A stretch of DNA of 64,000 bases from Blasia pusilla. Lineage: Eukaryota. A program made the position numbers and the translations under genes. Location of the stretch: contig CM114271.1 of NCBI GenBank assembly GCA_050084515.1, forward strand, positions 22,320,001 through 22,384,000, given 5' to 3'. Positions 1,803 to 64,000 of the stretch are shown piece by piece. A model generated the notes under the pieces. That model saw only the letters and a program-made list of their open reading frames with translations, was not told where the DNA came from and searched no databases. The first letter of the stretch is position 1. Each line of letters begins with the position of its first letter.

Positions 1803-1811
1803 TAGTATATA

Positions 1812-18037: not shown

Positions 18038-20370
18038 TGTTGAGGTCTTTCACAACTGGATGACTTGTTGACCAGGTCACCCGCCCCTGGTAACCTGTGC
18101 GCGCATGTTACCAAGGGGAGGACTATTTTTAGGGGAAGAGCCTTTTGGCTCTTCCCAACCCTAGATAAGAGAGGAAGGTGGCTTTCCTAAGCCATCTTTC
18201 TCATGTTGGGCTGTTGGAGCACATCTCTTGTATGTGTGTCAGATAGGACTAGGGTGCTAGCGTCCGGATTCCTTGATAGCACAGGGTGGACGAGGCTTGA
18301 TATGCCGATGTAGATTGAGGAGTGGAGTTTTAGGCCGGGTGTGCCATTTTTACTACTCTTTATTTTTACATGAGAAAGATGTCGGGGGGCTGGTGGGAAT
18401 TTGTTGTTTGCAAGTAGGAAAGCGAGTTGCCTTGGTTGGGAGCCCCTAGAGACGCGTGTGTTGTGGATGTCGGTCATTTTTTGTGTTCGGAAGGCCGTGG
18501 GCAAAAGCGCTCTCCGTTTTTCTCAGATTTTGCTGGTGCGGATTGATTGGGGACAACAGTCGAGTGTTGTGTGCAGTGGGACGGCGAGTGTACCCAAGTG
18601 AGGGTGTCGGGAAAGAGCAGGAGGCGATTTAGGTCACAGAGGCGGCAATGGGCGGCGACGGGCGTGGAAGGGCGAACGGCGACAGGAAAACGGCGCCCCT
18701 CCCCCCCGGCGCATTTATTTCTCGTCATAGGCCGCGTGTGGGGATAGGCAGAGAGGTTTGCACGACATGATGTTTTCGGGCACAATAGGGATTTGCAAGA
18801 GTTGACGATGGAGTGTCAGTGCGCATGATGTCGAGGGGTTGTCCGCATCTATTGACGGGAGGATTGACGTGTTGGTCGAGGAGAGTATTGTGTTGCAGAC
18901 GTTGTTGTGTCACATGTAGGAGTGCGTGTTGACGGTGCCGTAGGTTGGAGGGCGTAATCAGGCTACCCATTCGAGTCCCTTTTCCCGCACTTGTCATGTG
19001 TGATTGAGAGTGCTAGGTATCGGGTAGTAGCTTGTGCTAGGTGGGTGCAGCGATGGTGACGAGTGTAGATTCTTTTCATGTGTAGCATGTTGGTGGATAT
19101 ACGGCGGTTTCCGCGTAGAGGTCGCATGTATGACCCGAGAGTGTCACTAGGTTAGGTGAGTCAGTTGGAAGGCTCATGGTGAGCCCGAGTGTTGAGTGTG
19201 CGTGAGGCCGGGTATGTCACGGGATTGATGTTAGCATAGGTGAGCTAGTGAGGAGTGTGGGAGACTCTCGGTGAGTTTGTGTGCTTGAGCGGGTGAGACA
19301 GGGTTTGTCATCACGGCGTTCTTCCAGGGTTCGGAAGAACGGGTTAGTGCGAGCAGTGGTAGTGGTGTGACACGGAGTGGAGTGAGATATCGAGGAGTTA
19401 CCAGTGAGGAGCTACCTTGACATCCATCTGTGGCTAGATCGTCATCACTAGACACTGGGTCTAGTGACGAGATCGCAGACAGAGATAGTAGTACTTGGCA
19501 AGAGATGGACGACATGGGCCATCGAGGCATGTGTTGTTTCTCGGGTGTAGCGGGCACCATCGACTTAGATGATTTTATTTAGGAGTTCGACACGTGGTGC
19601 GACTTCTTGGAGATACGGACCCCAACACGGTTCAACCCTTTCATGGCATGGAAGGGGTTGTTCCAGCACTTGGAGGGTCCTTCGATGGATGACTACATGG
19701 AGTTTTGATCACTATATTCAGTAGAGATCGATGCCTAGAGGATGTATTGGGCTCCAGGATATGTGTCCACTAGTGGCCGCGAGGCATATGATGGGATTGT
19801 GAGAGGAGAGAGACCCACATCATCAGCCCAGAGACTAGATGGAGAGGAGGGCAGTGAGACAGGCGAAGTGGCAGAGACCTCTGGTGGTAGAGGGCCACCC
19901 AGCTTCAACCCCACAATGGAGTTCTTTTGACAATTGGGGAAGAGCTACCAGGGCATATGCGCCGACAAGTTGAAGAGTCTATATGATTTTCAATGAGTAT
20001 CGGGTGAGAGTATGAGAGAGGCATTGACACACATGAGGAGGGTGATCATTGCTACGTATGGAGTGACTGAGGCGCAATCAGTCCAGTATTGGTATGGGGT
20101 TATGGACCGAGAACTACGGAGGAGAGTCCGAGATGCAGTGTTGATTCACACAGAGAAGCCCAGATTGAAGGTGGTCTTTGAGTTGTCTGAGCGTAGTGTG
20201 CTCAACATGAGTGAGGAGCAGGTAGTGACCGCTGGATTTTCTCGAGAGTCAACGGGTCCACGAGCGACGGTGACCCCATAAGTGCAACAACAAGCACCAA
20301 TACCACGGGAGCGGTCCGGTGTGCCCAGAGAGCAGGGCGGGTACAGTGAGCCTATGAGGCAATGACCCGT
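18038..20370 (+). mobile_element. Truncated LTR retrotransposon (possible LTR from TGTTGAGG at 18038) with decayed gag at ~19514-20330
   Basis: Gag-like translation DLDDFI*EFDTWCD...FMAWKGLFQHLEG...FNPTMEFF...LKSLYDF...ESMREALTHMRRVI...YWYGVMDRELRRRVRD, with multiple stops. It is homologous to 56430-57175. The left boundary is tentative. Confidence 0.55.
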
Positions 20371-28869: not shown

Positions 28870-29955
28870 ATTTCATGCCAATTTTTTTCGACCGGTTTAA
28901 CCGACTACGATTACTCCTAACCTCGATCTCCCTGTCATTGTCACACAATTCACTACTCCAAAACTAAATTACAACTCCATGAATTAATGGAATGGCACAC
29001 TCTAGTTTACTTTTAAACCGAACACCCAACCCACAGATTAGGGATTACCTGGTGGGTTAGGTGTCGTTCACCTAACGATTGACGCTTTCCTTCCTTCGAG
29101 ATGGAACAGAAATGACATGTATTCTTTTGAAGCACGGGAAGGAAATGGGAGTTCAGTTCGCTTTGGACTCCGAAGGGGAGGAGAAGAGATCTGTTGAGTA
29201 GTGTCGGAAGTGGAGGAATGCAGGAAATGAGTTTGGATGGTTTTCAATTCGAGGTACAGGAGCTCTGGTCGTTTTCATTTAAAAATTGATTTAGAAATGT
29301 GGAGGTGAATGAATCGGCGACTGAGAATCGCACAATTTGGTGGATCTGGAGTCTTATTGTACTTGGAAAGCTTGGTGTCTGTCGAGGATACTTGGGAGCA
29401 CTGCGTAGGTGATTTCTTGAGTCTGTGGTGCAATCAAAGCCGCGATTCTTTCAATTCTGTAGGGGAGTGGTTGTCTGCCGGTGTTCTCGCGTGTGGATCG
29501 TGGAAAGGGATCCATCTCAGTGGTTTTGATGCTCTGAAGCGATGTCGTTTGGATGATGCAGGACTTTTCGTCACCCTCAGAAGCGTAGGATCTCTTCTAC
29601 ACCGCAATGGGAATCGATCTTCAACTGTGATGCGCAGAAAGACGATATATGGGGGTTTAGGGTTTAGGGAGATGCGGTCGGAGTGACAGTGGAGTCGGTA
29701 GAGTTTGTGGAGATGCTGAGAAAGCGCAGGGGACAGAAAGATCTTACCAGTGCGGTGCGGTTTCCTTGCAAATGACGCTGGGGCAACAATGTTCATTCTC
29801 CAATTGAATATTTTTGCTCCGGATGTAGAGGAATCTGCAAGGCCCTCTAGATTCCCTCCTTCAGTTCTCCGCTGGCTCAGCTTGCGACTCTGATTTCCTT
29901 CAGCTGCTGCTCTGGGACCTGGCACCCGCATTCTCCTCATCTCTCTCAGAAGCGC

Positions 29956-32900
29956 ATGAACAGCCTTCAAACGGGGGCTCTCGAAGGCTTCGCTATGTGG
30001 ATATCCTTTCGGAGGCCTTTGAACAGAGCATTTTTTCGTACACTTGCTTTCCATCGGTCTCCGCAAGAGTTTAAAGGAGATCCTCTGAATGACAGTGTTG
30101 GCCAGGGTGCGAAACGGCCTGCCAAATTTCTAGACACAAGCTCTAGGTCCGGTGATGGCGATCAGCAGCCCCGCTGGTCCCAAGGAAACGAAATTTCCGA
30201 GTCTGGCCAGATCCGCAGACAAAATTTCGCCGGTTTTCATGAAAGAAATCACAGGCACGATGGATTGGAAGGACAAAGGAGGAGCTCGGAAGGGCTGGGA
30301 AGAGCTTCAAGATACTCACAAAGTAGGGAAAGGGATTCTCCAGGCACCGAGGCCCATTTCGTAGGCGAGAAGGAGTCCATAGGAGAGAGAAGGGGGATAG
30401 AAAGAACTCCTGAGAGAAGGCTGGATGGTTCTGGTTCCCGACGCCAACCTGATGTGGCTCCCCGTTCTAGAGATAGCGGAGATCAGCACTACGGATACTC
30501 GTTCCGAAATTCGAATTCAGAGGTGGGCGAATTTCGTAAAATAGATACTGGAAGTTCTCGTGGGAGAAGCGATAGACATGATTTCGTGGAAAGAGAAAGG
30601 AGGAGATTGGATTCGCGAAGTAGCGAGTCTTACAGAGGACGAAGTTCAGTTGACACAGACAGCAGGCAGATGGGTTCTCAAGTGACTGAGGAGTCGGGTG
30701 CTCGGGCCCAAACCTATCCGCGTCGTCAAGAAGGAGAGAAGAAATGGCAATTTGCCGTGAGGAAAAAGCAGCAGCTCGCCGGATGGAGTCGAGGCCAGAC
30801 AAGGAAGTCGACGCAGAAGTTTGTGGACGATGAAGATCTCGGGGACGAACCGCTGGGAGATGAATGGAGGCAGAAGAAGATGGCGTGGCTTTGCAAGGAG
30901 ATCCCAGGGCTCAAACCCCGTGGAGTCGTGACTATTTTGAATGAGCAACGTAAGTGGATAAATGCGACAGACGTTAAGTACATCGTGCAGCATTTACTCC
31001 GGATCGGCCAGTTCTTACGCGCCCACAGAGTAAGTGCTGGTCGTCTCACATCCGAGTCTGTATGGTGATTCTCAACAATATTCAGGCAAACGTTGTGAGC
31101 AATTTTCGCAGGTCCGAGCAGCAAGCTTCTGCACATTCAAGACTATATAACTTGGTCGGTGTCGTTTGATCAAGCCATTCAACTTGGCAGTGGATCTCCC
31201 AGCATCGAACGGATATCTCCGAGCAATACCAGCTGGGTTTAGAATGACATTTTCCACACATAGGTTTTTGTAAGAGCAATAGGCACTCGAAGAACTGACT
31301 GTCGACTCTGTGTGTTGTTTTTTGGAGCAGGTTTTAAAATGGGAGATGCAGCAACCTTGGTACGAGTACAACTTCGAGCTCAATACTGCAGTGGCCAATT
31401 CTCTCGGAGAAAATAATAAGCTGAGCAGGACAAGGGACCTTTACGATCTGATGATTCAGAATAGAAAGGTGCCGGAGCTTTCCACCTATGTGTTACTGAT
31501 AAATTGCTACATTGCAGATGGGACCAATGAAGCTCTACAGAAAGCTGGGAGTCTTTTTAATCAAATGATTCAGATGGGGGGTTATGAACCCCCACCAACT
31601 CTCCGCTACAAGCTATTCAATGCCCTTCTACAAAAGAACTTTACGCATCTTGACCAGGCGGATGCAGTGTTCGGAGGCATAAAAAATAGTGGCTTGGCAG
31701 TTAGTGAAGAGATGTACAACTCACTCATTCTCTTACACGGAACAAATGGAAATCAAGAGAGAGTGGACTTCCTGATAGAGGAGATGAAGAAGACAGGTCT
31801 GAAGGTTGGGGAGGAAGTCTACGCTGCCATTATAAGAGCGTGTGTCAAGGATGGAAATATCATGAAAGGCGAGCAGGCATTCACTGACCTTAAAAGTGTT
31901 TGGGAGAAGCAGATTCCCTCTGTCTATGCCTCCTTGATCAAGATGTATGGTGACGCAGGTTTGCCAGAGAAAGCTTTGGAGAGTTTTGAGGAGATAAGAC
32001 TCAGCGGGATAAGTTTGAGCATAAATATTTATGAACCAATAATTGCAGTATTAGCTGCAGCTGGAAAGAGACAGCAAGCTGAGAAGCTCCTGAAGGAGGC
32101 TCAGGAAAGAGGCCTGCCATCAATGCAGGGATGCTATAATGCTGTAATGGGATTATACTCGAAGTCTGGGTTGATACATGAGCTGGAGACAACCTTTCAG
32201 GACATGCAGAGTGCAGGTTGCAAGCCAAATGCTGCGTCCTTCAATGCAGTTCTGGAGGGATATGTAAAGTGCGGATTTCTGGAAAAAGCAGAGGCTGTTT
32301 TTCAGGGCATGAAGATTGAGGGTAGAATTGGTCCTAACCAGAGGACCTTTGAGATAATGATTAAGGCTTATGGTGATGCAGGAAACTCAGAAAAATTGAA
32401 GGAAATGTTCCATGAACTGGCTGGCAGGAAGATGGCTGTTCCACATGGAGCAGCTGAAGTCTTAGAGAAAGCTGTCAGTCCAAAAAGGCTGGATGCGTTG
32501 AAAAACTCGAATCTCAAGCTTAACAGAAACCAAAGAGAATTGCTGGCAGGAGTGCTCCTGGGCGGAGCGCGTGTAGAAAGTCATGATAAGAATCGGACTT
32601 ATGAAATTCACTTTGGATTGGATCCTGATAGTGAAGGTCAATCTATCTTGATTAAACATTTGTATGAGCAGTTCTCTGACTGGTCAAAAGAAGCTCCGAG
32701 GGAGCAGCCCATGAGTGACATCAAAGATCCTCTGAAGTCTAAAACATTGCTAACTTTCCAGACTGTAAGCCATGGAGCTTTCCGGTTTTTTGCCCATCAG
32801 TATAGACCGGACAGGAAAGCGAAGATTCCAAGACTTATACATCGATGGCTCAGTCCTCAGGCCCTTGCTTATTGGTATATGTATGGGGGTTACAGGTGCC

Positions 32901-33145
32901 CTCAGACTGGAGGTATAATCCTGGATGCATCACCTTACAGTGGCAAGGAGCTCATGCTGGTGGTGGATGCCCTCAAGGCAAGAACCATTGATTGTGAGTC
33001 CAAGAGACAGAGTAAGGAAGGGCTGGTTCTTCGTGTTACAGGCAAGTCTGCGACTTGGCTTTGGAAATTAATGGAACCCTTTATTATTCCTGGGTTGAAG
33101 GTTTCATTGAAGCCTGAGGACAGAAGTGTCTGTGAACCTAGTTAG
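29956..33145 (+). CDS. OTP51: P-type PPR protein with C-terminal LAGLIDADG domain (OTP51-like organellar splicing factor); exons 29956-31029 and 31331-33145
   Basis: Contains KKMAWLCKEIP...ILNEQRKWI and RAHR|VLKWEMQQPWYEYNFEL across a GT-AG phase-0 intron. Tandem ~35-aa PPR motifs follow (e.g. YNSLILLHG, FNAVLEGYVKCG), then LAGVLLGGARVES...FRFFAHQY...IPRLIHRWLSPQALAYWYMYGG. The start may be 29956 or 29995. Orthology versus paralogy is not established. Confidence 0.9.
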
Positions 33146-34846: not shown

Positions 34847-37344
34847 CAACCAGCCCAGATTAGGAGGTGACAATGGCTACATGACTCTGTACCTTGCTCT
34901 TCTACCATTGCCGTCACTTCATCTGTCGCTATGCTTCCATGGATCTACAGACAATCTCGCCAGTAGAGGGAGCCTTAGAATCCAGCAACTGGTGAGGTAG
35001 TGTCTTCACTCAAAGTAACAGTAGTAATTTAGGACACATCCAGCACAGCAAAAAAAGTGATTGGCGATCACTTCCTAATCTTTCCAAGACCCAGGCTGGA
35101 CGGAGTTTGTGGAGGCCAAGCAGAAAGTAATGATAGAAGAGACATGGATCGTAGATAATATATAACACACACGTAAGGTTCTGCTCTACTCAGTTTTCTT
35201 GAGAAGTGCATCTGGAAAAACCCTGAACCCTAAAGTGCATCCGAGCGAACATTGTTGCTATTTGAAGAGTTACAGATTTCCTGCTGCATGCCACTTCAAG
35301 CTCTTTCAGATCATGGAGTCATGATGATGATGACTTGGACTTTGAACTTACAACAGTGGAGAGGTGTAGCCAATCAAAGCAGCGTGGAACTGGATCAGAC
35401 TCTGAAGGCAAGACGTCATGGTTCCAATATGTCATGTCTCGGAACATAGACTGCGTCACCCATTCGTCAAATTTGGCCTCTTCAGCCCCTGAGTTAGCAC
35501 TGTTTCCTCCGGCTGAAATCCGGTTCTTCTCCAGAACATATCCTACAAAGAGGGAGAATAGATTAACAGAGTGTGTGAAACAATTCACTTTCTCATCTTC
35601 TTCAACTTTTGACATCACACAGACGCCGTGCCATGAATTCCCAGGCTGCTGAGCAGCTGTCAATAATCCCAAAGGAGTGCAAGGATTTAACGGGCCCTTA
35701 AGCAATTGCAGAAGATTAACATCTGACCCGTTATATAAATGGGCAGTGCTGAATAGTTCACCTGACTCTGCCTCTTCCATCGACCTCAATTACCATCATG
35801 CTTGCATTTACCCGAACATTCGTGCAAAGAAGGCAGCAGCAAGAGCGAGAGGTGCAGTAGGAGATATTGGCAGTAGCTGAACGAACGACGATAAAGTTGA
35901 TTGGAGGATCTCAGCTTCGCTTCTACTCTTCTCCACTTAGCTTCCATTGCTAAGATATATCAGAGCACATTGCTCTTCCTTAGATTCATCAGGGCTTTGA
36001 ACCGCCGTCCGCTTTGAAGTGAGAAGGCGCACAAATGATCCAGGGAAATACTCACCACAATAATTTGGAGGAAGTTCCAGCGTCGAGCCCAGCAACTTCC
36101 GTCCTCTAAATGCCGCCTCGCTTATCTCCATGTCATCCCTCCTCTCGCCTATTCTGAAGCAAAAATTGCAGATAAGCATCGTGTGCCATCAACGATTTTC
36201 AGCTGAACTGATCAAAGACATTTCCGCCATCGTCAGCTCTGTTCCCTTGCCAATCAATACTCACGATGGGAATTGTTATCCATGGCTGACTTCCTGCACC
36301 CCAACGAACCTCCAAGCCCACTCTCTTCCCGCCAAGCTTTCTCGACACAGTACACACACCATTATGCACTCGAACGAGAGAATAAATGGGACTGGAGTGT
36401 GACTACGGAATTCCACACTGAATCTCCGGAGAACCTAAACGGTGAGGAGATCAGTTACACGGAGAGAAACAAGCGCTAGTCATGATGGACTTTCCGATCA
36501 CCCTACCCTATCCTGCCCAAACACTCACTTCATACATCGACCATCGTACAAAGACTAGGCACACTCGTAGACGAATCCTCGGACGAGCCATAAACACTGC
36601 ATTCGATTAGCAAGTCAGTGAACAGACGCTATAGAAATAGACGAGAATCCCACACATTCGCGCCTTCCACTTCTGCATCCACTGCCCCTCGCTCGACACG
36701 CCAGTCGCAACAGGCCTCATGGCCTTCAGTATGGAAACACTCAGTGGATGCAGCAACAGAGATTGTGCACATCGACTCCTCCAGAAGTCTGTGCAGGATG
36801 CGTTTCCTGCTTCTCAACGTGCTTCATCCCGCTCACGAACAGAGTGCAGCAACAGAGATTGCGACCATAAACACCTCAAGCCTATGGAGGATACATTCCC
36901 CCCAGCTCATGGGCACAAGAAACACGGCCTTCCCTTCACGCCCTATTACCAGGGAACGTGAAGTCCACAGTTGAGACCGAAACCACTCAGTGAATCCAGA
37001 GGACATGCATCCATTTCCCGCTCCTCAAACCCACAAGAAACACAGCCATTGACGCCCCACTACAGAGAACTCGGGCGAGAAAACACTCAGTGAATCAATC
37101 CTGCGAGAGAAATTCTGAGTCCGGATGCGATGCACAGATTCTCTACTTCTGAAAACCGCTGACAGCGCGGGCCCTGACGTGCATTACCAGTGGGTTTAGG
37201 CGTGAAGAAGTGGGACACCGGCGCCGGGCCGTAGTGGTTGATGCAGCACGGCATCATGTGCATAGCTCCGCTCATGTCCATGCAATCATCCGTCACTCGG
37301 ACGACTCCCATAGCTCCATCGCTCCCTCCCGCCCGCATCTCCAT
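34847..37344 (-). CDS. RNASEH2C: Ribonuclease H2 subunit C; exons approx. 37344-37188, 36152-36056, 35540-35351 and 34944-~34847 (3' end uncertain)
   Basis: Translation has MHMMPCCINHYGPAPVSHFFTPKP, EAAFRGRKLLGSTLELPPNYCG|YVLEK and FRDMTYWNHDVLPSESDPVPRCFDWLHLS, the typical RNase H2C motifs. GT-AG junctions are present. Confidence 0.88.
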
Positions 37345-38054: not shown

Positions 38055-41000
38055 TTATCCAAGAATTTCTTTATATACTACATTCCGTGTATAGTCACCT
38101 TCCTTGTTTGAATGTTCATCGCTTCCAATTGTAATGTGGATAGAACTTCTCTTCCCTACTCTAGATAATGCTACATACAATTGGCCATGAGAAAATACTG
38201 GAGTAGGCAAGTAAATGCCCACCTTTTGCAAAGTTTGACCTTGGGACTTATTGGTAGTCATAGCAAAAGCCAGTCGAATAGGGAATTGAAACCTACGTAA
38301 ATCAAATGGCAAACCTGAATCTGATGCAGTCAATGGGATACGTGGAACAAAAATTCGACTCCAATATTCTTCCCTGTGATGATTTCATCATCTATGCAAT
38401 GTTGCATAAATCCACGAATCACCAATCTTGTCCCATTTGCTTGTCCATGTGCTCCATTCATGTTTCGTAACAACATGATTGGTCCCCCAATCTTCAAACA
38501 CAATCGGTGCGGAGGAAGTCCTGAAGGCAAGCATGTGTTCAAAAATTCAGTTGGATATACATGAGTCATCCCCTCGTTTGGAATAGAGTCAACGCTGAGG
38601 TAAACTTGCTCATGTACACAAAATATAATGAGTTTGTAAGAAAAGGTAATATTAATATCCAAACTTGTAATTGAATAACTCTTTTATAAAAATTAAAGGG
38701 ATTACCTCTCTTGGAAACCGCGACATTACGCTTGCATTTATGTCATCTACATCTTGATTTCTTAGAGTCAAAATTGCCGTATCTCTCAAGAAATCAATGT
38801 CATTGAATTCGGATGGAAATTTTCGATATATCAAATCAAGAAGATCACATATCGTATTACTTCTAGTAACAATTTCAGATGGTAATTGTATAAAATTTTC
38901 TCCCAAATGTGGATGCAAAGGTACACGACCCTCTCCCACTTCTAATAACCAATCAGCAAAAGCTTGTTGTTCACTACGCAAGTGACCTTCCAACCTCTGA
39001 ACTCGCATGTTTGTAGTAAACTTCATGACCTTTACATTAGACCAAAGAGATGACCTCTTTATGGTGGCTTGGATGATTTGCGGCCGATCCCCATGACAAA
39101 CAACAGGAAACACTTGACGAAAATCACCACCAAATACCATAAGTTTTCCACCAAATGGTAATTGTCGGTGTTCATCAGAAACAACTCCCATAATATCTTG
39201 TAAAGTCCGATTTACAACCTCAAATGCGTGACGATGAGCCATAGGAGCTTCATCCCATATAATAAGCATTGCATCACGGATTGAGCGCGCTCCATCACTA
39301 TTAACCAACAAACTACAGTAAGAAAAGGGGAGTAAATTAGAACTTGTGCCACGGTGGAGGAAATTAAACTTTTGCATCACGAAGGTGGCACTTACTTGTA
39401 AGTAGAGCTCTCATGAAGATTGATGGGGATTTTGAATCGCGAATGTGCAGTACGTCCTCCGTCTAACAATAGAGCAGCTATTCCAGATGACGCCACAGCC
39501 AAAGCTATACCTCTTGCACTCCTTACACTTGCAAGAAGAAGATTATGTAAAAATGTTTTTGCCGTTCCACCTGGGCCATCGATGAAAAAGAATTTTGGAG
39601 ATGGTGGAGCATCCAAGCATATTTTATCAAGCTCATCATGTATAGCTCCCAAATAATACGTTGTCCTTCATTTAGACATGTTTCTCCTAATTGCACTTGC
39701 TCAAATAGTTCTTCCGTATCATACAAAAGCTCTCGTTCCTCCAAATATGAATTTGATTGAAGTCGTTGGAAGTCAGGTTGGGGCATGTCTGGAAAGTCTC
39801 ACAGTCTTTTCCTTGATCTTGTAAATAATAATGGACTTCCAACAATGCAGTATTAACCATAGCATCTTCAACGGGAAGATTAGGAATTCCAATTTTCTAC
39901 AAAATAGGATGATAACCCAAAATTTGTAGACTTTTGAATGCTCAATAGAAGATACTATTAAGAATTAAAAAAATATGCAAGGGTATTAATGAATTCTTAC
40001 CATACGCCGTTCATATAAGAGATCTTCTACCATTAGAACCAAAAATTAACTCCAGAGTGTTGCAGGTTGAGCAGATGTGTTGTACGCTAGAATAATTGCA
40101 AATAGGCGACAAAGTGAAGAACCTGTACGAATTGTAGAAGCTTCTTCAAAGCAAGAGAAAACTTCCCTATTATCCTCAAGAAGTCCCAATTGGATAGAAG
40201 CCTCCTTGAATGTTGGACATAATATCCCATTAACAGTTCTCAAACATTCATACGTAGTTGATCCTCGAACATGATGGAGAAGTAATCTCAACCAATGACG
40301 TTCTCCTTCACCTATGAGGAATTAAACTAAATGAGTTTATCCCAACATGTAGATACACTGCTTTAGAGGTGGAATATAAAAGGAATTATGTACAAAGAAG
40401 TTGTGAGCATTTACCTGGATGAGTAAGGTATAAGCCACAACCATTTTGTTTTTGTACCCTACGAATCCATCTCTTGTTACTCCAACGATAATAAGAAGGA
40501 AAATCTATGTATAGATATTTTCGAGCACTGGAGTCAGATAGATTGGTTGCAAACCATTGGGTCAATGTTGTCTCTCTTTTTAGTTGCAAAATATCTCCAG
40601 GAGCGTCAACATCATTGAAGTAGACTAATTTTTGTTCTGGAAGATAGACTGCTAGTCGTACGATACTTGGAAGTTCAGCATGTAGACTAAACTTAAAGAG
40701 ACGCCAACATGCTTCCGAAGAAGATATATATCTAGAATAATGAGAATTCCAAGTATTTGAGTGAGAAATTACATGAGAAGGACTCTCCCATAATTACATG
40801 AAGTTGAGAAATAAAATATAATGCATCAGAGAAGTCAATCCATAAAATCATACCTTGCATCAAGATATGACATTGTCTCGTCAATAACTTCGATTACATT
40901 GGATGTATCCATATCCTTTGACAACTTAAATGACACAGCATCAGATCCTTTATAAACATATTTGTATAAGTACTTGACAGCAAAAACACTACTTGTAATC

Positions 41001-43820
41001 TCCAAATTAATGTGACAATCAAATAGGATGCATAACATCAGATTGTAAGGTACAACCCAACGATTATCCAATGAATATTCGCTCTTAATTATCGCCCTTC
41101 CATTCTCCAATCTACAAAAATACAATAACAATCGTAATTAATCATGAATGAATGTATTAGAAGGAATCATGCATACATATGCCTAAAAAATAAAAGGGTC
41201 CTCACCTACGATATATCGGATAACCATCTTATGTTTCGGTACTGTTGGCCGCAAAAGCTTTAGGATAGCCTTTTGTACATTTTTTTGTTTCCTTATCCAT
41301 ACACATATCATTTGGATTTAATGGTCCACATGGATCGTGAACCACGCAATTAGCAACGGTAGAATACAACCTTAGATGGGTAGATTGATCAGGGATTTCA
41401 GTTGAAATGATTCGATCATAATCACTTGTGGTACGTGGTTTATCCTCACGACCTAAAATAATAAGGACATGCACATGCGGTAAGCCTCTTTTTTGGAATT
41501 CCACCACATGGATGCATCCTACAACTCGGCCTAATATCTGTTTCTTGATGATAAGTCGTAACAACTCCTTCTTTTTCTTCTCAAAAACCCGCACAACCAA
41601 ATCTGGTCGGTCTACAGCTGATTGGCCCGGTAATAGGGCTGAAGTAATCTCCTCCCACTTTGGATTGCATGTCATGGTTAAGAAGTAGTCAAGCTTCCCA
41701 AAATGTCGTACAATTGCCATTGCATCCTGATACAATTGATGCATATGACGTGGCCCTCTAGTAAAAGAAGAAGGTAATATAATTCGTTTCCCAAGCCTTC
41801 GGCTATCCGCATCTTGTCGATGCATGGCATCCTTTACACCTTGATATAATTCAGCCCTCAACTCCTTATGATTTAAGCGCACCCATAATAATCGTTGCAT
41901 TTCCACAATGGCATAGAGGTCAACCATATATTCTTGAGTAAGTCGACGAAGCCGCAATAAGCGATTGTCATCTTCTCCTCCAACCTGAGTTTGAAGTCGA
42001 AAACATGCAAATTGCAAGGCCGTAACACATTTTGTTCTTCTTTCCTCAACAATATCACCATAAACTATGTCCTCATCCATGCAATCATCTGCAGGTTCAG
42101 GATGTCCCTCCTCTCCATGAATAATGTGGCCCAATCGTCGGGATTCCCTACAACCTTCAATTCGCCCAAAGGGTATTCCAGGATGCCAATCTGCTTCACC
42201 ATAGATAAATAACAAAACAAAGTGTAAGGGAATATATGCTTCATTGAGGTCGGATATACGTTTGACTCCTCCTCCATGTAGTCGTACAATTATATCACGA
42301 TGCTCAACGTGTTCACTTCCATCACCCGGAAAAATAGCATCAACTTCAAACGCAATTAGTAAGTTATAACGCCTTGCATCAGGTCTTCTCTTACTTGCCT
42401 TGAGGATAATCCGCACATTAAGATCACTTGCTTCATATGCCATATGACGAAAGATCTTCACATATGGATTGCATTCATGTAACATGTCTTGGAGACCTTT
42501 CAAAATATCCATATTAAGAATAGAAGATGTAGACATAACTCTAGCACGATTTTCCAATTCATTTGTAGTATCATGGATGTATAGTTGAGCAAATTGAGGA
42601 TGTCCCCCAATATCAGGATGTAAAGGTCCAATGGAATGATAGATCCCGCCTTGGACCCTAAAGTGTCCAGTGCCACCAATTTGTTCGTTTACATGTACCC
42701 CGGTAGATGCAAGTTGAAGTGCCGAATTATAAGCTCGAGCATGAGTAAGAAAATGAACGCTTCTAGGACTAGCACCCGAAATCAAGGATTTCAGAAATGG
42801 AGGAGATGATCTCAAGAGAGGTAAGTATATTCTTCCATGGCCACAACACATGCCATATGGTGAGTCACCAAACTTAATACCTTTGACCACTTCACATTTC
42901 CAATGCAAAGCACGACATGAGGGACATATCTCTGTCATAGAACCTAATGTATGACGACCGCTGGTACGATTCAAACTCCTTTGTAATTGCAACTTTCAAA
43001 TATCACTTTCTTGAAAATTTGGCCTCCTTGCAAGATTGAGAGTTGTATTTAATCTTACAACTCTATCAAGGGTAGACGATCCATAAATTATAGAAGTGTT
43101 TGGTACAGTGGCACGTTGTGGAGATAACAAAACTCCATTAGGAGACATGGCATCTACTCTTGACCTTGATTCATCCCCGAGTTGGGAAAAAGTTGACGAA
43201 TTGTTGAAAACTTCATCTGGAATAGGAATAGGAAGAGTGGTCGACGAATTGTCGACAACTTCATCTTGAACTTGAATAGGAAGAGCGGTCGACGAATTTT
43301 TTACAACTTCATCTTGAATTGGAATAGGAGGAGTGGTAGGTAACTCAACTTGTGGTGGCCCAATCGTGGATGTATTCTCGATAACTTCATGAAATGCATT
43401 GTCAACTAACTCGAGTCTTGGCGATATATAAATATAATCCGTCGAGTGTTCGCTCACTTCTTGATTTTCTTCTACTATTATTCCATCTTCATTTGAAGGC
43501 CTGAGAAAATATGTCAAAATATTGATAAGAATAAATACAAATCAAATATGGAGTAAATCAAGTAGTTATGAAGTGAATAGTTAGATAAAGGTACCTATTC
43601 AATGGAATAGGTGCAATACTCTCAGGCTGAACTTGACCATTAAGCCCTTTCCTTCTTTTTCTATACTCTCGATAGTAATTCCTCTTTTTTTCTTTGAGAG
43701 CTTCCATTCTATCAGCCCGAATAGCACGCTTTCGTTTTTGGGCTTCGCCACGTAGAACCTTCCAAAAGTCACGTATATTGACAGGATTCAATGGGATTGG
43801 AAGTCTGGAACAACACATGA
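38055..43820 (-). pseudogene. Helitron RepHel (Zn finger, HUH/Y2 Rep and PIF1 helicase), multi-intron and disrupted
   Basis: Motifs: CPSCRALHW...CCGHG; VVEFQKRGLPHVHVLI (HUH); KYLYKYVYKG (Y2); FFIDGPGGTAKT (Walker A with G>A); [31 protein letters not shown]. In-frame stop at 41229-41231 and several frameshifts. Confidence 0.93.
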
Positions 43821-56429: not shown

Positions 56430-57175
56430 AGCGATACCAACATTGTTCTCAGATGAGGGAGAGGGTGTAGCGAAGGAGTTTGTTAGTGCATCATCGCATA
56501 TGTTGAGTTGTCCTACCGTTTGGGCATGTGAGATAGACAATTGGGATAGAGGAACGCATAGGTTTTCGAGGGTTTTGGGTACTATAGAGTTGTATCGAGA
56601 GTTGTACGACTTCATTACAGAGTTTATGAGTTGGCGTGACTTATAGAGGGCCATGAACTCTAGAGAGTTCAAACCTTTCGCAACATGGAACGGGATATTC
56701 CAACACCTAAAGGAAGAACCCATAGAGGATAACCATGAGTTTTTCCATAGGTACATGTTCAAGATTGAGGCATAGAGACTCTACTATGATCCATATTACG
56801 TGTCATGGAGTGAGCCATTTCAAGATAAGGAGGAAGACCTATGGGAGGCTACTTCCTCTGCCACTAGTAAGAGTCAAGGAGGGGTGAGTCAAACTGGGGC
56901 ACTTGCATCGTCTAGTTGGGTTTATCCTAGGTTCAACCCTATGGTTGAGTTCTTTGCGGAGTTATAGAGGAACTACAACGTGGTATGGATTGAGAATTTG
57001 CGGAGCATCCACGACTTCCATATGCACATAGGGGAGATTTTGGGGGAGGCATTTACTCGCATGCGTTGTCTGATTAGTGTTACGCGTGACAACAACCATG
57101 ATCGTCTGCACCACCAGTGCAGCGACATGGATTTTGAGAGAGGAGTGTGGTATCACAAGCTCAAGAAGGTTATTG
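56430..57175 (+). pseudogene. Decayed LTR-retrotransposon gag fragment, same family as 19514-20330
   Basis: ELYDFITEFMSWRDL*...FATWNGIFQHL...FNPMVEFFAEL*RNY...LRSIHDF...GEAFTRMRCLI aligns by eye with the 19.5-20.3 kb gag. Confidence 0.65.
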
Positions 57176-57179
57176 TGAG

Positions 57180-60100
57180 CATGTGCTAGAGCAACCCATG
57201 CCATCATCCACAACTGGAGTCATCACCTGTGACTGACCTACCATAGTCAACCAACAAAGATAAGCATATGCATGCCAACCACGCACCATTTCCTTATCAC
57301 TCTCTCCGTGCCATCGAGCTCCTATGTCGTCTCTCTAACTCGCACATGGGTTACATCTCAACCCATCCGCATCTTGGTTCAACCGACCTGGCCTATGAAC
57401 CACCTCAAACTCATACTCTTGTAGTAATAGAGCCCATTGGCAAGCTTTCCCGTACGCTTGTTGGACTCCATCAACCACCTCAACGGCTGATGATCAGTGA
57501 TAAGTGTGAAAGGGTTGCCGAATAAATAGCACCTGAAATATACCACTGCCCACACTGCAGCCAAGCACTCTCCCTCACAAGAGTTGTACTTTGCCTCTGC
57601 AATGTTGTTCGATCGGCTCGCGTAAGCCACAAAAAAATCCTTTTCCTCATCATCTCTCTGAGTAAGCACTGCTCCTAGACCCAACATGCTCCAATCCGTA
57701 TGTAACTAGAATGGGCGACCCCTAACCGGTCTCTGTAAAATGGGTGAGTACGTCAACCTGTCCTTGAGCTCCTGAAATGCTTGCTCTTGATAATCTCCCC
57801 ATAACCAAACCTGATCAAGTCTCGTCAACAAGGTCAAAGACTTTGCCATCGCACTAAAACCCTTGACATACCATTGATAGAAGTCTTCCAGTCCAAGAAA
57901 CGCTCGGACTCGACTCACATATGTAGGGCGTGGAATCTACGCAATAGCCTCCATCTTCGTCTGCTAAACGCCTAACCCTCTCGGGTATATGGTGTGTCCC
58001 AAGTACTTAATCTGCTCTTGAAAGAATATGCACTTGGTTGGATGTAACTTTAGTCCATGTAACTGCAATCGCCGAAACACCTCCCCCAGGTGTCGCTCAT
58101 GCTCCTCAACCGTGGAACTGAAGATAAGAATATCATCTATGTAACATGGTACAAAATCCAAGCTAGCCATAATCATATCCATCACTCGCTAAAACTGTGC
58201 AGGCGCGTTCTTCAACCCAAATGGTAAGAACTGCCACTGATACAAGCAATCTCTCTCGAAGTGATCTATCCCCTAGAATGCTCTCTTCTCCCTCTCCTCC
58301 AACCTGATAGGAAGCTGATGATAGCCAGCACGGAGATCTAAAGTACTGAAGATCTTTGCATGCCCTAGGGCATCAAAGATCTCCTCAGGAGTAGGCATGG
58401 CGTACCGATCTGACCTCATTTGTCGGTTGATAGGACGGTAATCTCCACACATCCGCCTATCCGTCCAATTGCCATACATATCCTTCTTCGCAGACATGAC
58501 TGTGGCAAATGCATACTCCCCATGTGATAACTCCACAAGTCCTGCCTCCAACAAGTCCTGACTCCTGCTCTCAATCAAGGCTCGCTCCATATCAGAATAC
58601 TTGTAGGGTCGATGAAAGATCGGCGTATCACTAGCCAACTCAATCCATTTCTCGTGACCCTTTAGCGTACCCAAGTCTCTCATATTGAAGGAAAAACAAC
58701 TCACATGCCTTCTCAAAAACCTATGAACTCGCCGTCGCTCTCCTCCTATCAACTTGAGAGCTATCACGGGCTCCCAAGTCTCCATCGTGACCTCACTCAG
58801 AGAGGACGCAACCTCTGGCTTTGGTTGCTATGTAGCAATCCTAGCCACCTCCGCAACAGCCATTCCACTTTGACCTCCTACACCATGCTCCACATCCAAA
58901 AAATGAACATGCGCTACTCTAGCCCCCTTTGCACTCTCTGCTCGAACAATGTCCCAGGAAGTCCATGGGTGCCTATCTCTCCTCGTCCCGCCCCCAACCA
59001 ATGCTTGTATAGACCCTGTAGGAAATGGTCCAACTTGTGGACGTGACGACATGGATGACATTTGCATCCCTCTTTGCTCTGCCATACCTAGGCTGACTAT
59101 CCATGTGAGACAGTTGAGGTCCATTGCCTACCCCAACACCTGTCTCCGAGATGCCTCAGTCATACCTGGCACCGCCGTAGTACCTGTAGCAAACCCCATG
59201 GTGCTCTTGCACTCATCTACTGTAGGCTCCTCCAATGCTCCGATCACCTCATCCCAAATCATGCCTAGCCCTCCTTGATGAAAGGCATGGGATTCTGGGA
59301 AGCTCACCAACGTAGGTAAGGCTGCCCTCAACTCCCCCATCCTATTGGCCATGCCAATGGTGGTCTATCATCACGCGTCATCACTTGAGATCGACGCCCT
59401 GAGCCCAAAATAGCATCCACTGTGAGATGTGGTGCTCTTGGACTCCATCGTATGCTCGACTTAGTACCTTTGATGGTATCAAGTTCATCCACCATAGTCG
59501 TGGACGATGGGCATATGATCCAACTCTCGCTGCATCTAGCAACACAGCAAGTTCCAACCAGGATCCCACCTGATGCAAACTTGTCATCACACGTGCACGA
59601 GTGTCTCCCAACAACGGCACGTTCTCCAAAATATACGCCGAAGAACATGTCTGACTCTCTTGCAAGTGTCGTACTACTTGCAGCATCTCCAAAAATATCC
59701 TTGACCTCGGATCCTGCAATCCAAATCCTCGGCCCGTTGATGAATGACCCTGACATGGCCATCCAGAAATCACCAAATGAATGGTGCCAACTCTATCCAG
59801 ATCCTACGCCCCCACCAAAGAGATGTCGGCGGGTAGTGTATGCTAATATCCCCGTAGTGCAAATACCAGCAACAACTCATGATACCTCTGGACCAATCTC
59901 GCTACGTGACGTAATGATACTCGCCGTACGGTCTCGTTACGTCTCTCCACATAAAGGTACTGTTGCACCCGTCTGCCCGCCTGAAATATAGCAGCCAATC
60001 CGGTGCTAATCCCTCTGAAGAGATCTAATACCCTAACACCCTCCTCTGAACACTGCCACACAATGGGTGTGGTATCAAGTGGGGTCAGTGTCTCCACTCC

Positions 60101-60570
60101 AAGGGCCCGCTTGCCACCTGACTCTCGCTGCTCCGGGATAAAGGCATGACTCCATGTCTGCCTCATAAGGTCGTCGGCACTTCTCTGTAGCTCTCGAGTC
60201 GTATCCCATAATGGTGAAGAGGTCTTGCCAAAATGGGAAGAGACACCCGCCATGGCCTGTCTCTCCGTGGGACTATCCGCTACTGGGACATCCTCAACAT
60301 GTGCATTCCCCTCCAACAATTCTTCTGGCCAGCTAACACTACCTATGAAAGTTGCCAACATGGTCACAGACTCGCCTCGTGATCGACCACCTCGTCCCGC
60401 AAACTGCACGGGTAACTGACTCATCCGCCCATCACCTGACCGCCACCCTGTCTGATAAGAAACGGTCTTCTCCCATAAGTCAAGGATGAATCCTAAGGGA
60501 TATAACACTGTACTCCCAACCAACACATCGTACGACTCAGCTGGTGTCGTAAATCTGAGAAATTCCAAAC
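57180..60570 (-). mobile_element. Ty3/Gypsy pol remnant with order protease C-terminus, C5 DNA methyltransferase, RT, RNase H; truncated at both ends
   Basis: Protease tail: YDVLVGSTVLYPLGFILDLW. RT: RMCGDYRPIN, DRYAMPTPEEIFD, FSTLDLRAGYHQ, LPFGLKNAPAQF, YIDDILIFS. RNase H: LHTDWS, VAYASRSNN, YLFGNPFTLITDHQPL. Many stops; no integrase present. Confidence 0.92.
59090..60040 (-). pseudogene. Retrotransposon-encoded C5-cytosine DNA methyltransferase domain (frameshifted)
   Basis: Motifs occur in canonical order: I VLDLFRGISTG, II YLYVE, III LPADI, IV LVISGWPCQGHS (Cys codon 59755-59753), V DPRSRIF, VI YILENV, VIII HRPRLWW, IX EPTVDECKSTMGF, X RRQVLG*AMD. Confidence 0.9.
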
Positions 60571-61119
60571 TCACTCGTTGGTCCCTCATTTTTATGGTTG
60601 CAAACCATCCGACAGTCCATGGTTCCTTGGTTCGCAATCCGTTGGAAATCGATGGGTTGCAAAATAAACAGCATCAAGATAGATCAACACAATCGACAAG
60701 AAAAAAAAAATTCAGAAAAAGTTTACAAAAACCATCATGGTTCAAAAACTTCTTGTCTTTTATTACATCCGAGGGAAGTTAGGAAATGTACATTTGATCT
60801 AGTCTATGATTTCTTGAGCCTCGTCACCTACAAATTTACTCCTAACTCTTCTATGTTCCTGTACAAAAGGAATGTCTTGGGATACAAGTGGCTCCTTTGG
60901 CTAATTGTAGACGGGGATTGTAAATGTTGGGGAATTTGAGAGCCTTGGTCCCCCCTTAGGTACACCATAACGGTCCCATGTAACATGATTTGAGTCCCAA
61001 CGCCTTGCTCGACAATAAATCTTGTATTCTCTGTAAGATGACACCCATCTAGTATCAATATGTGCTCCGTCCTTGAAAACAACTAAATCGGTTGTTCCAC
61101 TTCTCCTGTTCCACAACCA

Positions 61120-63900
61120 CTATTGATAGTTTCGGATAGTAGGAAGTGAAAATGGTGTCACTATCAATAGTGGTTGTGGAACTGGAGGAGTTGGCTTTGG
61201 AGGAGAGTTGTATACTCCCACTAGCCTCTCATAATCCACCCTTGCCTCTTTGCAAACGTCAAAAAGTTCTAGCCTTCCCTCAAGGCAGAGAATGTTCCTT
61301 CCACTCTGCCAAGCGCCTGTGATACTCGCCCCTGATAGGCCCACTAAGTCAAAGACCAAGTCACCCGGCCTCGAGCACAGCTCTATGAGTGTTTGCATCA
61401 AGGCATGTGATTTCTCCCTTCCTCCAAATTCCGGGGGGAATTGTAGAGACTATCTAAGTTGTACCCATCGGAGCATGGATCCACTGGATCCGGGATCTGG
61501 AACACCTGGAAGTTGTGCTCGGGCCTTACAAAGCACTAGACAAATGAGTGGTCCATGTGTGAACAAGCACGTGGAAAATAATGTTAGCAAAAAGAAAAGG
61601 GTAGTTGACCAACTCTCCATAAAGTGACACAATGTGCAACCCGTCGGGATCCGACGGGTTGCTCATTTGGCTAGACAGAATAGCAACCTGTCGGAGTCTG
61701 ACGGGTTGCTTTTCAATACGTCCTACTAGTCCCAAGTGATTACCAACCCATCCAAACTTGGCCTATAGGCCTGACAAAAGAGCAACCTGTCGGAGTCTGA
61801 CGGGCTGCTTTACAACTCTAAGAGGATTCTTCGGCTATGAGCAACCCGTCTGAATTTGACAGGTTGCTCATTTTGCTGGACACAACCGCCAACTGTCGGA
61901 GTCCGATGGTTGGCTTACAACTGAATCAAATTGTTCAAAGTTGAGAAGTTCCTAATATGAGAGCAACCCTTTGCTTTCAGACGGGTTGCATCACTCCAGA
62001 AACAAGTGGAAAAGCAATGCTATTTGCAACACGTTGGATTCTGACGGGTTGCAATCACTGGAGACATGTTGGTGAATTTGCAACCCGTTGCTTTCAGACG
62101 GATTGCATCATTGCAGACACAAGTGCAAAAGGAATTCTACTTGCAACCCGTCTGGTTCCTAGGGTGAATTTGAAACATGTTGGGATCCGACATGTTGCAT
62201 GCAGAGATGCAACCCGTCGGAGTCCGACAGGTTTTATTTCTGAACAAACTCAATTCGTTCAAAAAGTGCACTTACCCGGACTTGATTTGTCGCCGATCTG
62301 AGTGGATAATCATTTTTTATGAACCATGATTGCGCCGTCGTCCACTTCAGTGACCTCTTCATGCCATGAAGGTTGAAGAGCTCGTCTTCGCTCCCTCCAG
62401 TAAGGACCAAGAAATAACCCCTGTCACTGAGATACGCGTCAGCAAAAGAAAACAACAGAGCGATATGGTCATAGGAAAGTGGGACATTCCAATATGGGAC
62501 ACTATCAGAGGGATTGTTGTCCCACAAGCAAAACCCAGAAGGCAAATATCCAATGAGGAGATCCACCACCGCCTCCTCAGCAACCCCATGCACCGTCCAG
62601 GGGGCGTGCCCATTTCGATGGAGTTTTTGCCCTAGCACGGTCAATTTCTCGATGGCAGGTATCGACTCCTGAGAACTGAAACTCTACAATTTATCAACAA
62701 GATGAGTCAAGTAAAGAAGGATATTTGTCCTAGTGATCGTTTCCCTGTGCCTGCCCAAGGATGATGGAGTGTATTCCACATCCTTATCTCCTCCCTCGGA
62801 CGAACCAGGCACCTCTCGCTTTCGCTTCTCTCGAGTGTGTTTTCGGCTTGTTGGAGTCTCTATTACCTTAGACTCCACATGAGTTTTCTTTGATGAGGAC
62901 GAGGTCTGGCCCTCTCGCCCCTCTCGCCTCGACAAATTTGCCTCTCGCCTTGAACACTCAGCCTCTTTTCTCGAAGACTCGGCCTCGGAATTCCTCGATC
63001 CCCTCGCCCTGGCTTTCAAACCCGTTGTGGATTTATCTTTGGCAGTGACAACCTTTGCCACCAACTTCGTTGTCTCGAGGGCTTGCTCCTCCGCATCTCC
63101 TTCAAAAAATTTGTCAAGCTTCACAAAGTTTGGAATGTCGTCCCTACATGTGACCACTGCATCATAGATCACGTGTAGATTTTTTACTGTAATGTCCTTT
63201 GGATCGTTGAAGTCCAACCAGATTAGAAAATTTATTACCTCCTAGTCAAACATGCCCTGTCCCATCTCCATGTCATACATGGAAAATCCCTCTCCATGAG
63301 GCAGAGAAGCCCACAATTTGTAGGCTACCAAAAATTTTGCGCCAAGTACCTGCATTCACACAATTGATAAGGTACATGTACACCATCCGCTGGGGAGCTC
63401 TTTGTCGAGATAACTCAGCCACCTGGTCCTGAAAATCCCACTTTGTTTTTGCAAAATCCCATTTTTTGGCGTATATTTCCTCGACCAGATCTGCCTCAGG
63501 GAGGATGTAATTCTTGAACATCATCCGGAATCTTGGATTTTCCGTCGGCTTATCTCTTATGTCATCAAGCCATAGTTCAAAATCTTCTGCAGCCTCTAGG
63601 TTTGCTTCCTCTAGAATTGGCTCAATCTTCTTCAACTTTGCTTGTAGACCCACAATCATGGACTTCCCGAGAAGGCGCAACGCATCCCAGAATGAATGAT
63701 CATTCCCGTAGCCAATGGAAGATCACTGGATCTCAAACTCCCAGAGGGTGGTGTGCCACCCGCTTCTGTGCCTCAGTGCCCTCGAGACTCGTTTTAATCA
63801 GTCGGATTCGCCTAAACTCGGATATGCCTGACAGCGCAAACCTATGCACGCGATCTAGAGACAATTTCTCTCCGATCTGACCCTATGGATCCTCGTCTCT
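61120..63900 (-). pseudogene. Spliced, partly decayed gene ending in a beta-class amino-DNA-methyltransferase-like (N4C/N6A) domain; probably transposon-borne; 5' part runs off the window
   Basis: Exon ~62670-62276 has VDLLIGYLPSG (motif IV position)...FADAYLSDRGYFLV. Exon ~61500-61120 has EKSHALMQTLIELCSRPGDLVFDLVGLSGASITGAWQSGRNILCLE, comparable to KP..L...LI...S..GD.VLDPF.GSGTT..AA...GR..IG.E. A GTAAGT donor lies at 62275. Upstream open frames are at 62684-63217 and 63273-63680. Confidence 0.65.
61636..62235. repeat. Array of about 11 copies of a 27-bp palindrome (consensus GCAACCCGTCGGAnTCCGACGGGTTGC) with variable spacers
   Basis: Copies start at 61636, 61683, 61782, 61841, 61888, 61963, 62026, 62080, 62143, 62172 and 62209. 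Copy 1 has a perfect 12-bp stem. A further copy lies at 60634-60660. Confidence 0.9.
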
Positions 63901-64000
63901 CTTCCTCTGGCGCTTGATTATCGCCTAGAGCTCCTTGTAAAACTCCGGGCCAAGTTCGGGGTTGAGAATTGCAATGTAATGTTGCATCTTGCTTGCAGTG

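Follow-up and report, generated by a model that had tools for sequence, protein, structure and literature searches.

A DNMT3-like methyltransferase ahead of a conserved, predicted readthrough stop codon in Ty3/Gypsy retrotransposons of bryophytes

The window analysed here, a 64,000-nucleotide stretch of the Blasia pusilla assembly GCA_050084515.1 (contig CM114271.1, positions 22,320,001 to 22,384,000), contained on its minus strand (57,227–60,547) the remnant of a Ty3/Gypsy retrotransposon. In it, the tail of a protease (PR) was followed by a DNMT3-like cytosine DNA methyltransferase (DNMT), a reverse transcriptase (RT) and an RNase H (RH). The copy is dead and truncated at both ends, and belongs to an old Ty3/Gypsy lineage that carries a PHD finger at its integrase (INT) and a DNMT3-like methyltransferase. 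Intact relatives showed the organization of its clade, found in liverworts and Sphagnum and hereafter called the stop clade: open reading frame 1 (ORF1) encoded Gag, a zinc knuckle, PR and DNMT and was followed, after a UAG, by ORF2 in the same frame, encoding RT, RH, INT and PHD. Coleochaete probably belongs to this clade as well. What appears to be new is a clade of bryophyte elements in which the methyltransferase is encoded together with Gag, ahead of a predicted readthrough codon; it belongs to the same wider lineage as the KnitGypsy-Dnmt3 elements of Klebsormidium nitens.

The earlier note on this DNA had reported C5-methyltransferase motifs in order and co-oriented between the protease tail and the RT, and the positions on the minus strand agreed with this. 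The protease tail motif (60,515–60,532) was followed by DNMT motifs I (60,011–60,031), IV (GWPCQ; 59,750–59,764), VI (ENV; 59,618–59,632), VIII (59,489–59,509), IX (59,191–59,208) and X (59,113–59,127), and then by the YIDD motif of the RT (58,132–58,143). Read in the sense of translation, the remnant began with the C-terminal protease tail (60,420–60,547), the active site of which was lost, as the tblastn alignment to the Marchantia protein P0003 started at residue 709, past DSGA. A linker (60,032–60,419) in frame with motifs I–VIII led to the DNMT itself (59,100–60,040; PF00145), with motifs I–X unrearranged, and to the C-terminal tail of ORF1 (58,831–59,099), about 90 residues past motif X and recognized by the matching ends of Marchantia ORF1 proteins. 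Then came the conserved in-frame stop TAG CAA CCA (58,822–58,830), a predicted readthrough site by its conservation and its context of the tobacco mosaic virus (TMV) type, and a predicted extended RNA stem on its 3' side (58,727–58,820; duplex folding). The RT (57,790–58,790; PF00078) contained copy-specific TAG stops, and the RH (57,410–57,789; PF17917, PF17919) ended at about 57,413 with a frameshift near 57,436–57,451. The copy stopped, at the limit of homology, in the linker between RH and INT (57,227–57,409). The profile check proposed in the note returned all three domains: PF00145 scored 32.8 bits (cut-off 22), or 31.1 bits when stops were treated as X, and in that reading RVT_1 reached 103 bits and RT_RNaseH 97 bits.

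The note's description of the DNMT as complete holds for the set of motifs, but not for the reading frame. Nine in-frame TAGs were present in the copy, all within 57,706–59,845, of which three (59,843, 59,804 and 59,128) fell inside the DNMT; frameshifts near 59,438 and at 59,352–59,358 also interrupted it, and motif I carried R in place of the G or A of relatives. An extra stop lay downstream of the RH. The stop at 57,964–57,966 was missing in 1,327 of 1,564 (~85%) plus-strand first mates of a host DNA run, in a comparison covering 40 of 1,115 differences and the top 15 of 310 joints; that none of these differences falls on the conserved stop therefore carries no weight. Gag, the protease D[ST]G motif, integrase, PHD finger and terminal repeats were not found adjoining 57,227–60,547. 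From about 60,550 another repeat replaced the 5' part, and 1,577 host reads diverged from the window sequence at 60,552. The 3' break was adjoined by a gag fragment of a related element in the opposite orientation (56,548–57,084, plus strand; 40% identity to residues 9–185 of P0003, E 1e-30).

Most of the stops and frameshifts are breakage, as the note had it; the TAG at 58,828–58,830 is not. Many homologous Gag-PR-DNMT proteins ended 86–155 residues past motif X, and five Marchantia ORF1 proteins (1,278–1,281 aa) shared one end point, which was the stop site. Of 364 confirmed metagenome loci the best 80 were used, and 48 of these extended to an anchor immediately upstream of the RT. A stop was found at the site in all 38 anchored copies of the stop clade (37 loci and the window copy), with no sense codon in any of them. 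The context was TAG CAA CCC in 24 copies, TAA CAA CCC in eight and TAG CAG TTA in two, while TAG CAA CTC, TAG CAA TCA, TAA TAA CCC and the window's TAG CAA CCA occurred once each. In a decay control with 63 sequences aligned to one copy, 39 of 41 had a stop at this site, compared with 10 of 26 at the runner-up site and a mean of 6% over 134 Gln, Trp and Arg sites. Both exceptions were artefacts, one being the window copy, shifted by a gap, and the other an alignment edge. Decay was rejected, and we regard the TAG as part of the element's design.

The same data bear on whether a fragment of a processed host DNMT was captured here just once, with every stop due to decay. The nine TAGs are of the type expected from deamination of methylated cytosines. 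Yet 427 protein clusters matched, the DNMT was placed identically in Klebsormidium, Closterium, liverworts and Sphagnum, and the stop was conserved at one specific site. Host reads were as deep over the DNMT as over the neighbouring linker, so the refuting case named in the note, a one-off insertion, did not apply. The relatives, the anchored stop and the read depth together refuted such a capture, which we consider practically excluded.

The relative L032 was intact, with an ORF1 of 1,369 aa (Gag-zinc knuckle-PR-DNMT), the sequence TAG CAG TTA, and an ORF2 of 1,047 aa (RT-RH-INT-PHD) in the same frame. L049 was organized likewise, with one frameshift in ORF1, and shared the context TAG CAA TCA with L084. 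In the window copy, L032, L036, L049 and L084 the UAG was followed by CAR-YYA, with an open frame on both sides; the second codon encoded Pro, Leu or Ser and was always YYA. These five elements share ancestry and are not five independent draws. TMV and other plant viruses use UAG-CAR-YYA as their type I readthrough signal, in which UAA also works (PMC3542737; PMC3159437). We therefore hypothesized that the stop is a programmed readthrough site, a prediction we hold to be likely.

Folding suggested a stem between about 10–12 bases past the stop and the GGERR/GAEAR codons 80–115 bases on. In the window, the 5' arm was located at about 58,799–58,820 and the 3' arm at about 58,727–58,750, and their duplex (−20.8 kcal/mol) lay below all 282 slid controls; the window's arms paired with those of its own group of elements but not with those of the other. 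Two groups of elements had unlike arms: duplexes within a group ranged from −10.8 to −28 kcal/mol and those across groups from −7.1 to −14.5 kcal/mol, with slid controls at about −9 kcal/mol. For 27 of 39 copies, the duplex ranked within the lowest 5% of the copy's own controls. Extended 3' stems stimulate readthrough (PMC3542737). The arms appear to have been replaced together between the groups, which is supporting evidence and not proof.

A number of observations count against readthrough. As regards the stem, 12 of the 39 copies missed the 5% mark (three of these, L048, L062 and L063, enter unrelated sequence at the 3' arm), and in RNAalifold the four elements aligned shared a stem, but none of its pairs had changed on both sides. 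The duplex windows were set after the folds had been seen and later re-set by protein position; the first window missed an arm, and the Sphagnum-like copies were then non-significant. As regards the context, the largest sampled family (34 Sphagnum-like loci) had CAA-CCC, the last base of which is off consensus, and TAA replaced TAG in eight Sphagnum-like loci and in L064. P0042, whose RT falls within the stop clade, has its DNMT in the ORF of the RT. The other 11 anchored loci formed a sister clade, in which eight were free of stops over the 45 codons before the anchor and three had stops elsewhere; since this clade keeps the DNMT fused to the RT, the split is unnecessary for survival of the lineage. 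The surroundings of the gag stop of Candida Tca2 gave no readthrough in yeast (PMC2194720), so that sequence flanking a stop can mislead. Finally, the trees behind the clades were quick searches without bootstrap, supported by the Shimodaira–Hasegawa-like approximate likelihood ratio test (SH-aLRT).

Spliced RNA has precedent in Ogre elements, copia and foamy viruses, and RT-RH-INT could be translated from such an RNA with the TAG as the 3' acceptor. The TAG ends in AG, a splice-acceptor triplet, which also speaks against readthrough; a short run of T directly precedes it in the Sphagnum-like family, and some NCBI gene models (P0009, P0011, P0030) bridge the stop with an intron. However, the intron boundaries differ among these models, and the 50 bases upstream of the stop had 52–56% GC and 24–34% T in six of six elements, whereas plant intron ends differ in make-up from such GC-rich sequence. 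A splice acceptor would leave CAR-YYA and the stem unexplained. The ratio of RNA to DNA depth was level over the stop (15.8/2,949 and 14.3/2,502), at low depth and among the best 15 of 310 joints. Splicing is improbable on this evidence, and separate production of ORF2, through re-initiation at a nearby AUG or an internal promoter, is improbable to the same degree. An AUG was present 3–15 codons past the stop in four of six elements, Tca2 has a weak promoter at its junction (PMC2194720), and RNA depth was higher on the RT than on the DNMT. In the remaining two elements (L032 and L084), however, the first in-frame ATG came 117 codons past the stop and 14 codons before an RT motif. The exact continuity of the frame and the ratio of nonsynonymous to synonymous substitutions (dN/dS) of 0.25–0.59 in the linker also argue against a separate ORF2, and the step in RNA depth is compatible with diverged copies cross-mapping to the conserved RT core. 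Readthrough remained the preferred reading of the stop.

In comparisons of an intact relative's methyltransferase domain with solved structures, DNMT3A/3B/3C matched best (E ~5e-8), ahead of M.HaeIII (4.5e-5) and DRM2 (0.03). DNMT3A was also the first fold match of an AlphaFold model, which was mediocre (pLDDT 57) and was used for the top fold class only. The catalytic C, the E-N-V and the H-R were unchanged in 17 of 17 aligned rows. Among four intact elements, dN/dS of the DNMT was 0.07–0.12 in five of six pairs, the sixth being saturated; between two decayed Sphagnum-like copies it was 0.72. These ratios indicate purifying selection among intact elements, and the enzyme is predicted, with good confidence, to be active. 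The observed/expected CpG ratio was 0.35–0.78 in six elements, as would be expected from self-methylation and from host methylation alike. A host DNMT gene (DNMT3, DRM, MET1 or CMT) or a processed copy of one was rejected as the identity of the window's domain, which was embedded between PR and RT, had unrearranged motifs and closely resembled element DNMTs. It also grouped with element DNMTs, in a tree without host DNMT3, and so did not behave as the recent host fragment that the note had named as a refuting case.

The position of the DNMT in the polyprotein varied across the family. Layouts were counted in the 150 best of the 427 clusters. The RT lay upstream of the DNMT in 64 of these (P0272–P0410, e.g. 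P0323), typically as RT-RH-DNMT-INT-PHD (Pfam on four). Nine others had the RT downstream in the same ORF, 49 ended at most 250 residues past the DNMT, 20 ran on without an RT and eight were partial. The sampled RT-first DNMTs formed one clade (24 rows, SH-aLRT 98). Ten hosts of this layout were looked up; the one that was named, Scenedesmus sp. PABB004, extends the family to chlorophytes. In P0042, P0058 and P0071, ORFs started at or just before the DNMT and continued into the RT, hinting at a break upstream of the DNMT. P0127, a PHD-Ty3 polyprotein, had a precomputed PF05869 (Dam-type) domain, in agreement with the DAM-LTR preprint.

A search of long proteins with the DNMT part gave 28 matches, 14 of them from Marchantia polymorpha (52–68% identity) and one from Sphagnum fallax, and a hidden Markov model scan yielded the 427 clusters (50% identity) at E<=1e-30. 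Relatives of the DNMT also occurred in Calypogeia fissa, S. troendelagicum and Closterium; DNMT and RT were joined in one protein in Klebsormidium (KFL_009030040) and in Closterium proteins. The match in Riccia sorocarpa comprised RH-INT only, S. jensenii was also added, and the match in Coleochaete scutata comprised ORF2 only. The Coleochaete transcript (P0034) encoded RT-RH-INT-PHD as a separate ORF and fell inside the stop clade of the RT tree. The land-plant proteins were encoded on contigs of up to 67 Mb and are therefore not contaminants. The named hits included no moss beyond Sphagnum, no hornwort and no vascular plant; as most hits were nameless, this range is a lower bound. Persistence of a related family in embryophytes, as the note had proposed, was borne out by the Marchantia, Calypogeia and Sphagnum relatives and by the same PR-DNMT-RT order in KFL_009030040.

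Phylogenies agreed with this range. The window DNMT shared 61–67% identity with most element DNMTs from Marchantia and Calypogeia, and the window copy grouped with Calypogeia, Marchantia and Sphagnum elements (SH-aLRT 99 for RT, 100 for DNMT). In the RT tree (74 of 77 chosen rows, three being too short), a PHD-integrase clade of 62 rows (SH-aLRT 97) took in both the window copy and the Klebsormidium element (P0078). Stop-type elements clustered together, with SH-aLRT 99 in the DNMT tree and 92–99 in the RT tree. Assignment to a DNMT-bearing Ty3/Gypsy lineage is close to certain. The host is probably a land plant, as the note had proposed, given the element's nesting with Calypogeia, Marchantia and Sphagnum; the flanking genes adduced in the note are no proof of this (the OTP51-like gene leads to a Streptophyta-labelled cluster).

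Depth in host Hi-C data (1,934 Mb read) was about 2,200–3,100 over the DNMT, similar on the PR tail and the linker, and 3,600–8,500 over the conserved RT-RH core. Assuming a genome size of 0.2–2 Gb, this would correspond to hundreds to a few thousand copies per genome. In a host RNA run, 1,597 reads matched, mostly on the sense strand, and 1,548 of them were less than 95% alike; they therefore derive from other copies, which are transcribed a little. Scans of IMG/VR returned no elements, and none and three weak prokaryote-type hits. Apart from the element L084, a search of genome contigs returned just four weak hits, all bacterial. The near-intact elements L084, P0150 and P0453 were filed in bacterial bins, including a cyanobacterial one, and an Obscuribacterales-labelled methyltransferase was 94% identical to that of L032. 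Such copies in bacterial bins are most likely plant contamination and could mimic gene transfer.

Self-comparison of 22 loci revealed split direct repeats of the form A...B-A-B in five and a B-B pair alone in four, in the stop clade and the fused clade alike. The element termini were TGTCA...GACA, with a G run ahead of the first B. Target duplications of 4 bp flanked L052, L061 and L066, three of the five full elements; the ends of the other two, L064 and L071, were unreached by the script. The intact relatives L032 and L049 had the Gag-PR-RT-RH-INT order with rve and H2C2 matches. Two identical long terminal repeats, typical of Ty3/Gypsy elements, were not found; the elements had split repeats instead and were otherwise of the integrase type. 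At the inner B-A joint of L052, L061 and L066, two extra bases separated the closing GACA from the opening TGTC, as at an end-to-end circle junction, and the assembly of L084 was a circle-like permutation. Membership in DIRS/Ngaro was rejected because of the rve integrase, the 4-bp duplication and the lack of any recombinase family match in the ORFs of L032, L049 and L066. Membership in the chromoviruses (Chlamyvir, Tcn1) was rejected because the integrase carries a PHD finger and there was no chromodomain match. The earlier note mentioned neither the split repeats nor the PHD finger at the tip of the integrase, nor the conserved stop that separates DNMT and RT.

KnitGypsy-Dnmt3, a lineage in K. 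nitens, is the closest published system among DNMT-bearing retroelements; it has DIRS-like repeats with Gypsy domains according to the legend of Fig. 4c (PMC5890265). It resembles the present elements in its intronless, unrearranged DNMT3-like domain, in the PR-DNMT-RT-RH-INT order of KFL_009030040, in purifying selection and, compared with that legend alone, in its DIRS-like repeats (PMC5890265). The window copy was 41% identical to it over 426 RT-RH columns, and the two were not mutual closest relatives in either tree. KnitGypsy-Dnmt3 is known from one alga with the DNMT inside the Pol ORF (PMC5890265), whereas the bryophyte DNMT closes the Gag-PR ORF, with a UAG before the RT. A single Pol ORF with DNMT and RT was present in the sister clade (L066–L080) and in P0078, but not in the window's clade.

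Other elements share single features. SymbioDIRS-Dnmt3, DAM-LTRs and EpiLTRs also carry DNA methyltransferases (PMC5890265; bioRxiv 10.64898/2026.05.21.726589), and SymbioDIRS-Dnmt3 showed de novo CG methylation in yeast (PMC5890265). They differ in having a tyrosine recombinase, or adenine methyltransferase or DNMT4-related domains with a chromodomain, and in their hosts. Chlamydomonas Gypsy-7a_cRei, likened here by its description, has a PHD finger on a green-lineage Gypsy polyprotein, with no C5 methyltransferase listed in the accessible text (bioRxiv 10.1101/2022.06.16.496473). The stop and its six-base context match the type I sites of tobamoviruses, benyviruses and pomoviruses, where a polymerase likewise lies behind the stop (PMC3542737, PMC3159437). 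The differences from these viruses are the retrotransposon setting, the extended 3' stem about 10–12 bases past the stop, as in type II sites, and the CAA-CCC of one family. In gammaretroviruses, too, the balance between structural proteins and enzymes is set by a lone in-frame UAG, in the gag-UAG-pol arrangement (PMC3542737). The stop of the present elements, however, follows the protease and the methyltransferase and does not separate gag from protease; a pseudoknot was neither looked for nor found. SIRE1 has pol-env readthrough, with the stop after pol, unlike here. The literature searched, outside which lay subscription journals, Repbase and the MarpolBase libraries, contained no report of land-plant DNMT-bearing Ty3 elements, and none describing the stop or the layout seen in chlorophytes. 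The gene-count table of PMC5890265 had no Marchantia or Sphagnum row. PMC12344493 and bioRxiv 10.64898/2026.05.21.726589 spoke of 'streptophytes' with bryophytes unnamed in the accessible text; their supplements could list bryophyte copies.

Elsewhere in the window, a second repeated element occupied 60,550–64,000 on the minus strand. It gave a weak N6_N4_Mtase match at 61,120–61,446 (E 3.5e-4, below cut-off), with motifs that looked degenerate, and contained an array of ~27-bp palindromic repeats at 61,627–62,242. Host DNA depth was 1,300–3,300 over 60,727–61,661, and sense RNA reads came from other copies. An Atlas search with this neighbouring methyltransferase-like ORF gave leads that were all below 0.9. 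Alongside the 4mC enzyme of Marchantia, the trace of an amino-methyltransferase in a high-copy element deserves attention. Further features on the plus strand were a second helicase-like piece (1,151–1,606; from the ORF list), SRP68 exons (6,783–9,048), a gag fragment of the same family (19,505–20,251; 52% identical to P0003) and an OTP51-like host gene with pentatricopeptide repeats and LAGLIDADG (29,851–33,145). On the minus strand, an exon of RNase H2 subunit C (35,319–35,789) and a decayed Helitron (38,330–42,995; Helitron_like_N, PIF1) were found.

For the stop clade, we propose that ribosomes would mostly halt at the UAG, while a few per cent would pass it, aided by CAR-YYA and the 3' stem. 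DNMT production would then roughly equal that of Gag, with RT and integrase scarce, the reverse of a fused pol. The protease would release the DNMT within the particle, where it would methylate new cDNA before integration, which would be guided by the PHD finger and leaves a 4-bp target duplication. The copy might gain by arriving marked like host heterochromatin, either shielded or self-limiting, as hypothesized in PMC5890265. On present sequence evidence, the account as a whole (DNMT at Gag level, RT-RH-INT made by readthrough, cDNA methylated in the particle) is the more plausible one; that cDNA is the main target of the DNMT is favoured only slightly.

Readthrough could also be right while the main action of the DNMT lies elsewhere than in the particle: it could modify the element's chromosomal copies, competing elements or host DNA, or it could bind nucleic acids with little catalysis. 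This variant is unlikely, although it has points in its favour. An amount at Gag level would far exceed the need of one cDNA, and the DNMT was placed at three different polyprotein positions across clades. Every catalytic motif is retained, however, with dN/dS near 0.1, and the fusion to Gag and protease suggests packaging, as such fusions imply in general retroelement biology. The Klebsormidium enzyme gave no methylation signal in yeast, a result that its authors called inconclusive (PMC5890265) and that is one more point against the account proposed above.

Why a transposon keeps a transposon-silencing enzyme has been a puzzle since 2018, with hosts that are hard to work with. The conserved stop implies that the enzyme is wanted in Gag-like amounts, which is a clue to its function. 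Marchantia polymorpha, a model with methylation mutants, has full-length copies of ORF1 among its hypothetical genes (Mp4g09160, Mp5g06330, Mp5g06860, MpVg00370, MpVg00540), which makes the question of function testable. Among retroelements, a readthrough site at this position would be new. For annotation, the family affects DNMT counts in bryophytes, false introns drawn across the stop, and the assignment of plant element genes to bacterial genomes. More tentatively, these elements may form an ancient green-plant Ty3 lineage, from chlorophytes to mosses, in which a DNMT3-like enzyme has been a part of the particle for most of plant evolution. In bryophytes, the break would have moved behind the DNMT, giving each Gag a DNMT, with plant-virus-type readthrough and a co-varying stem rationing RT and integrase; given the end-to-end junction inside the split repeats, reverse transcription may be non-standard as well. 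With hundreds to thousands of copies per genome, such elements could supply de novo methylation in bryophytes without having been recognised for it.

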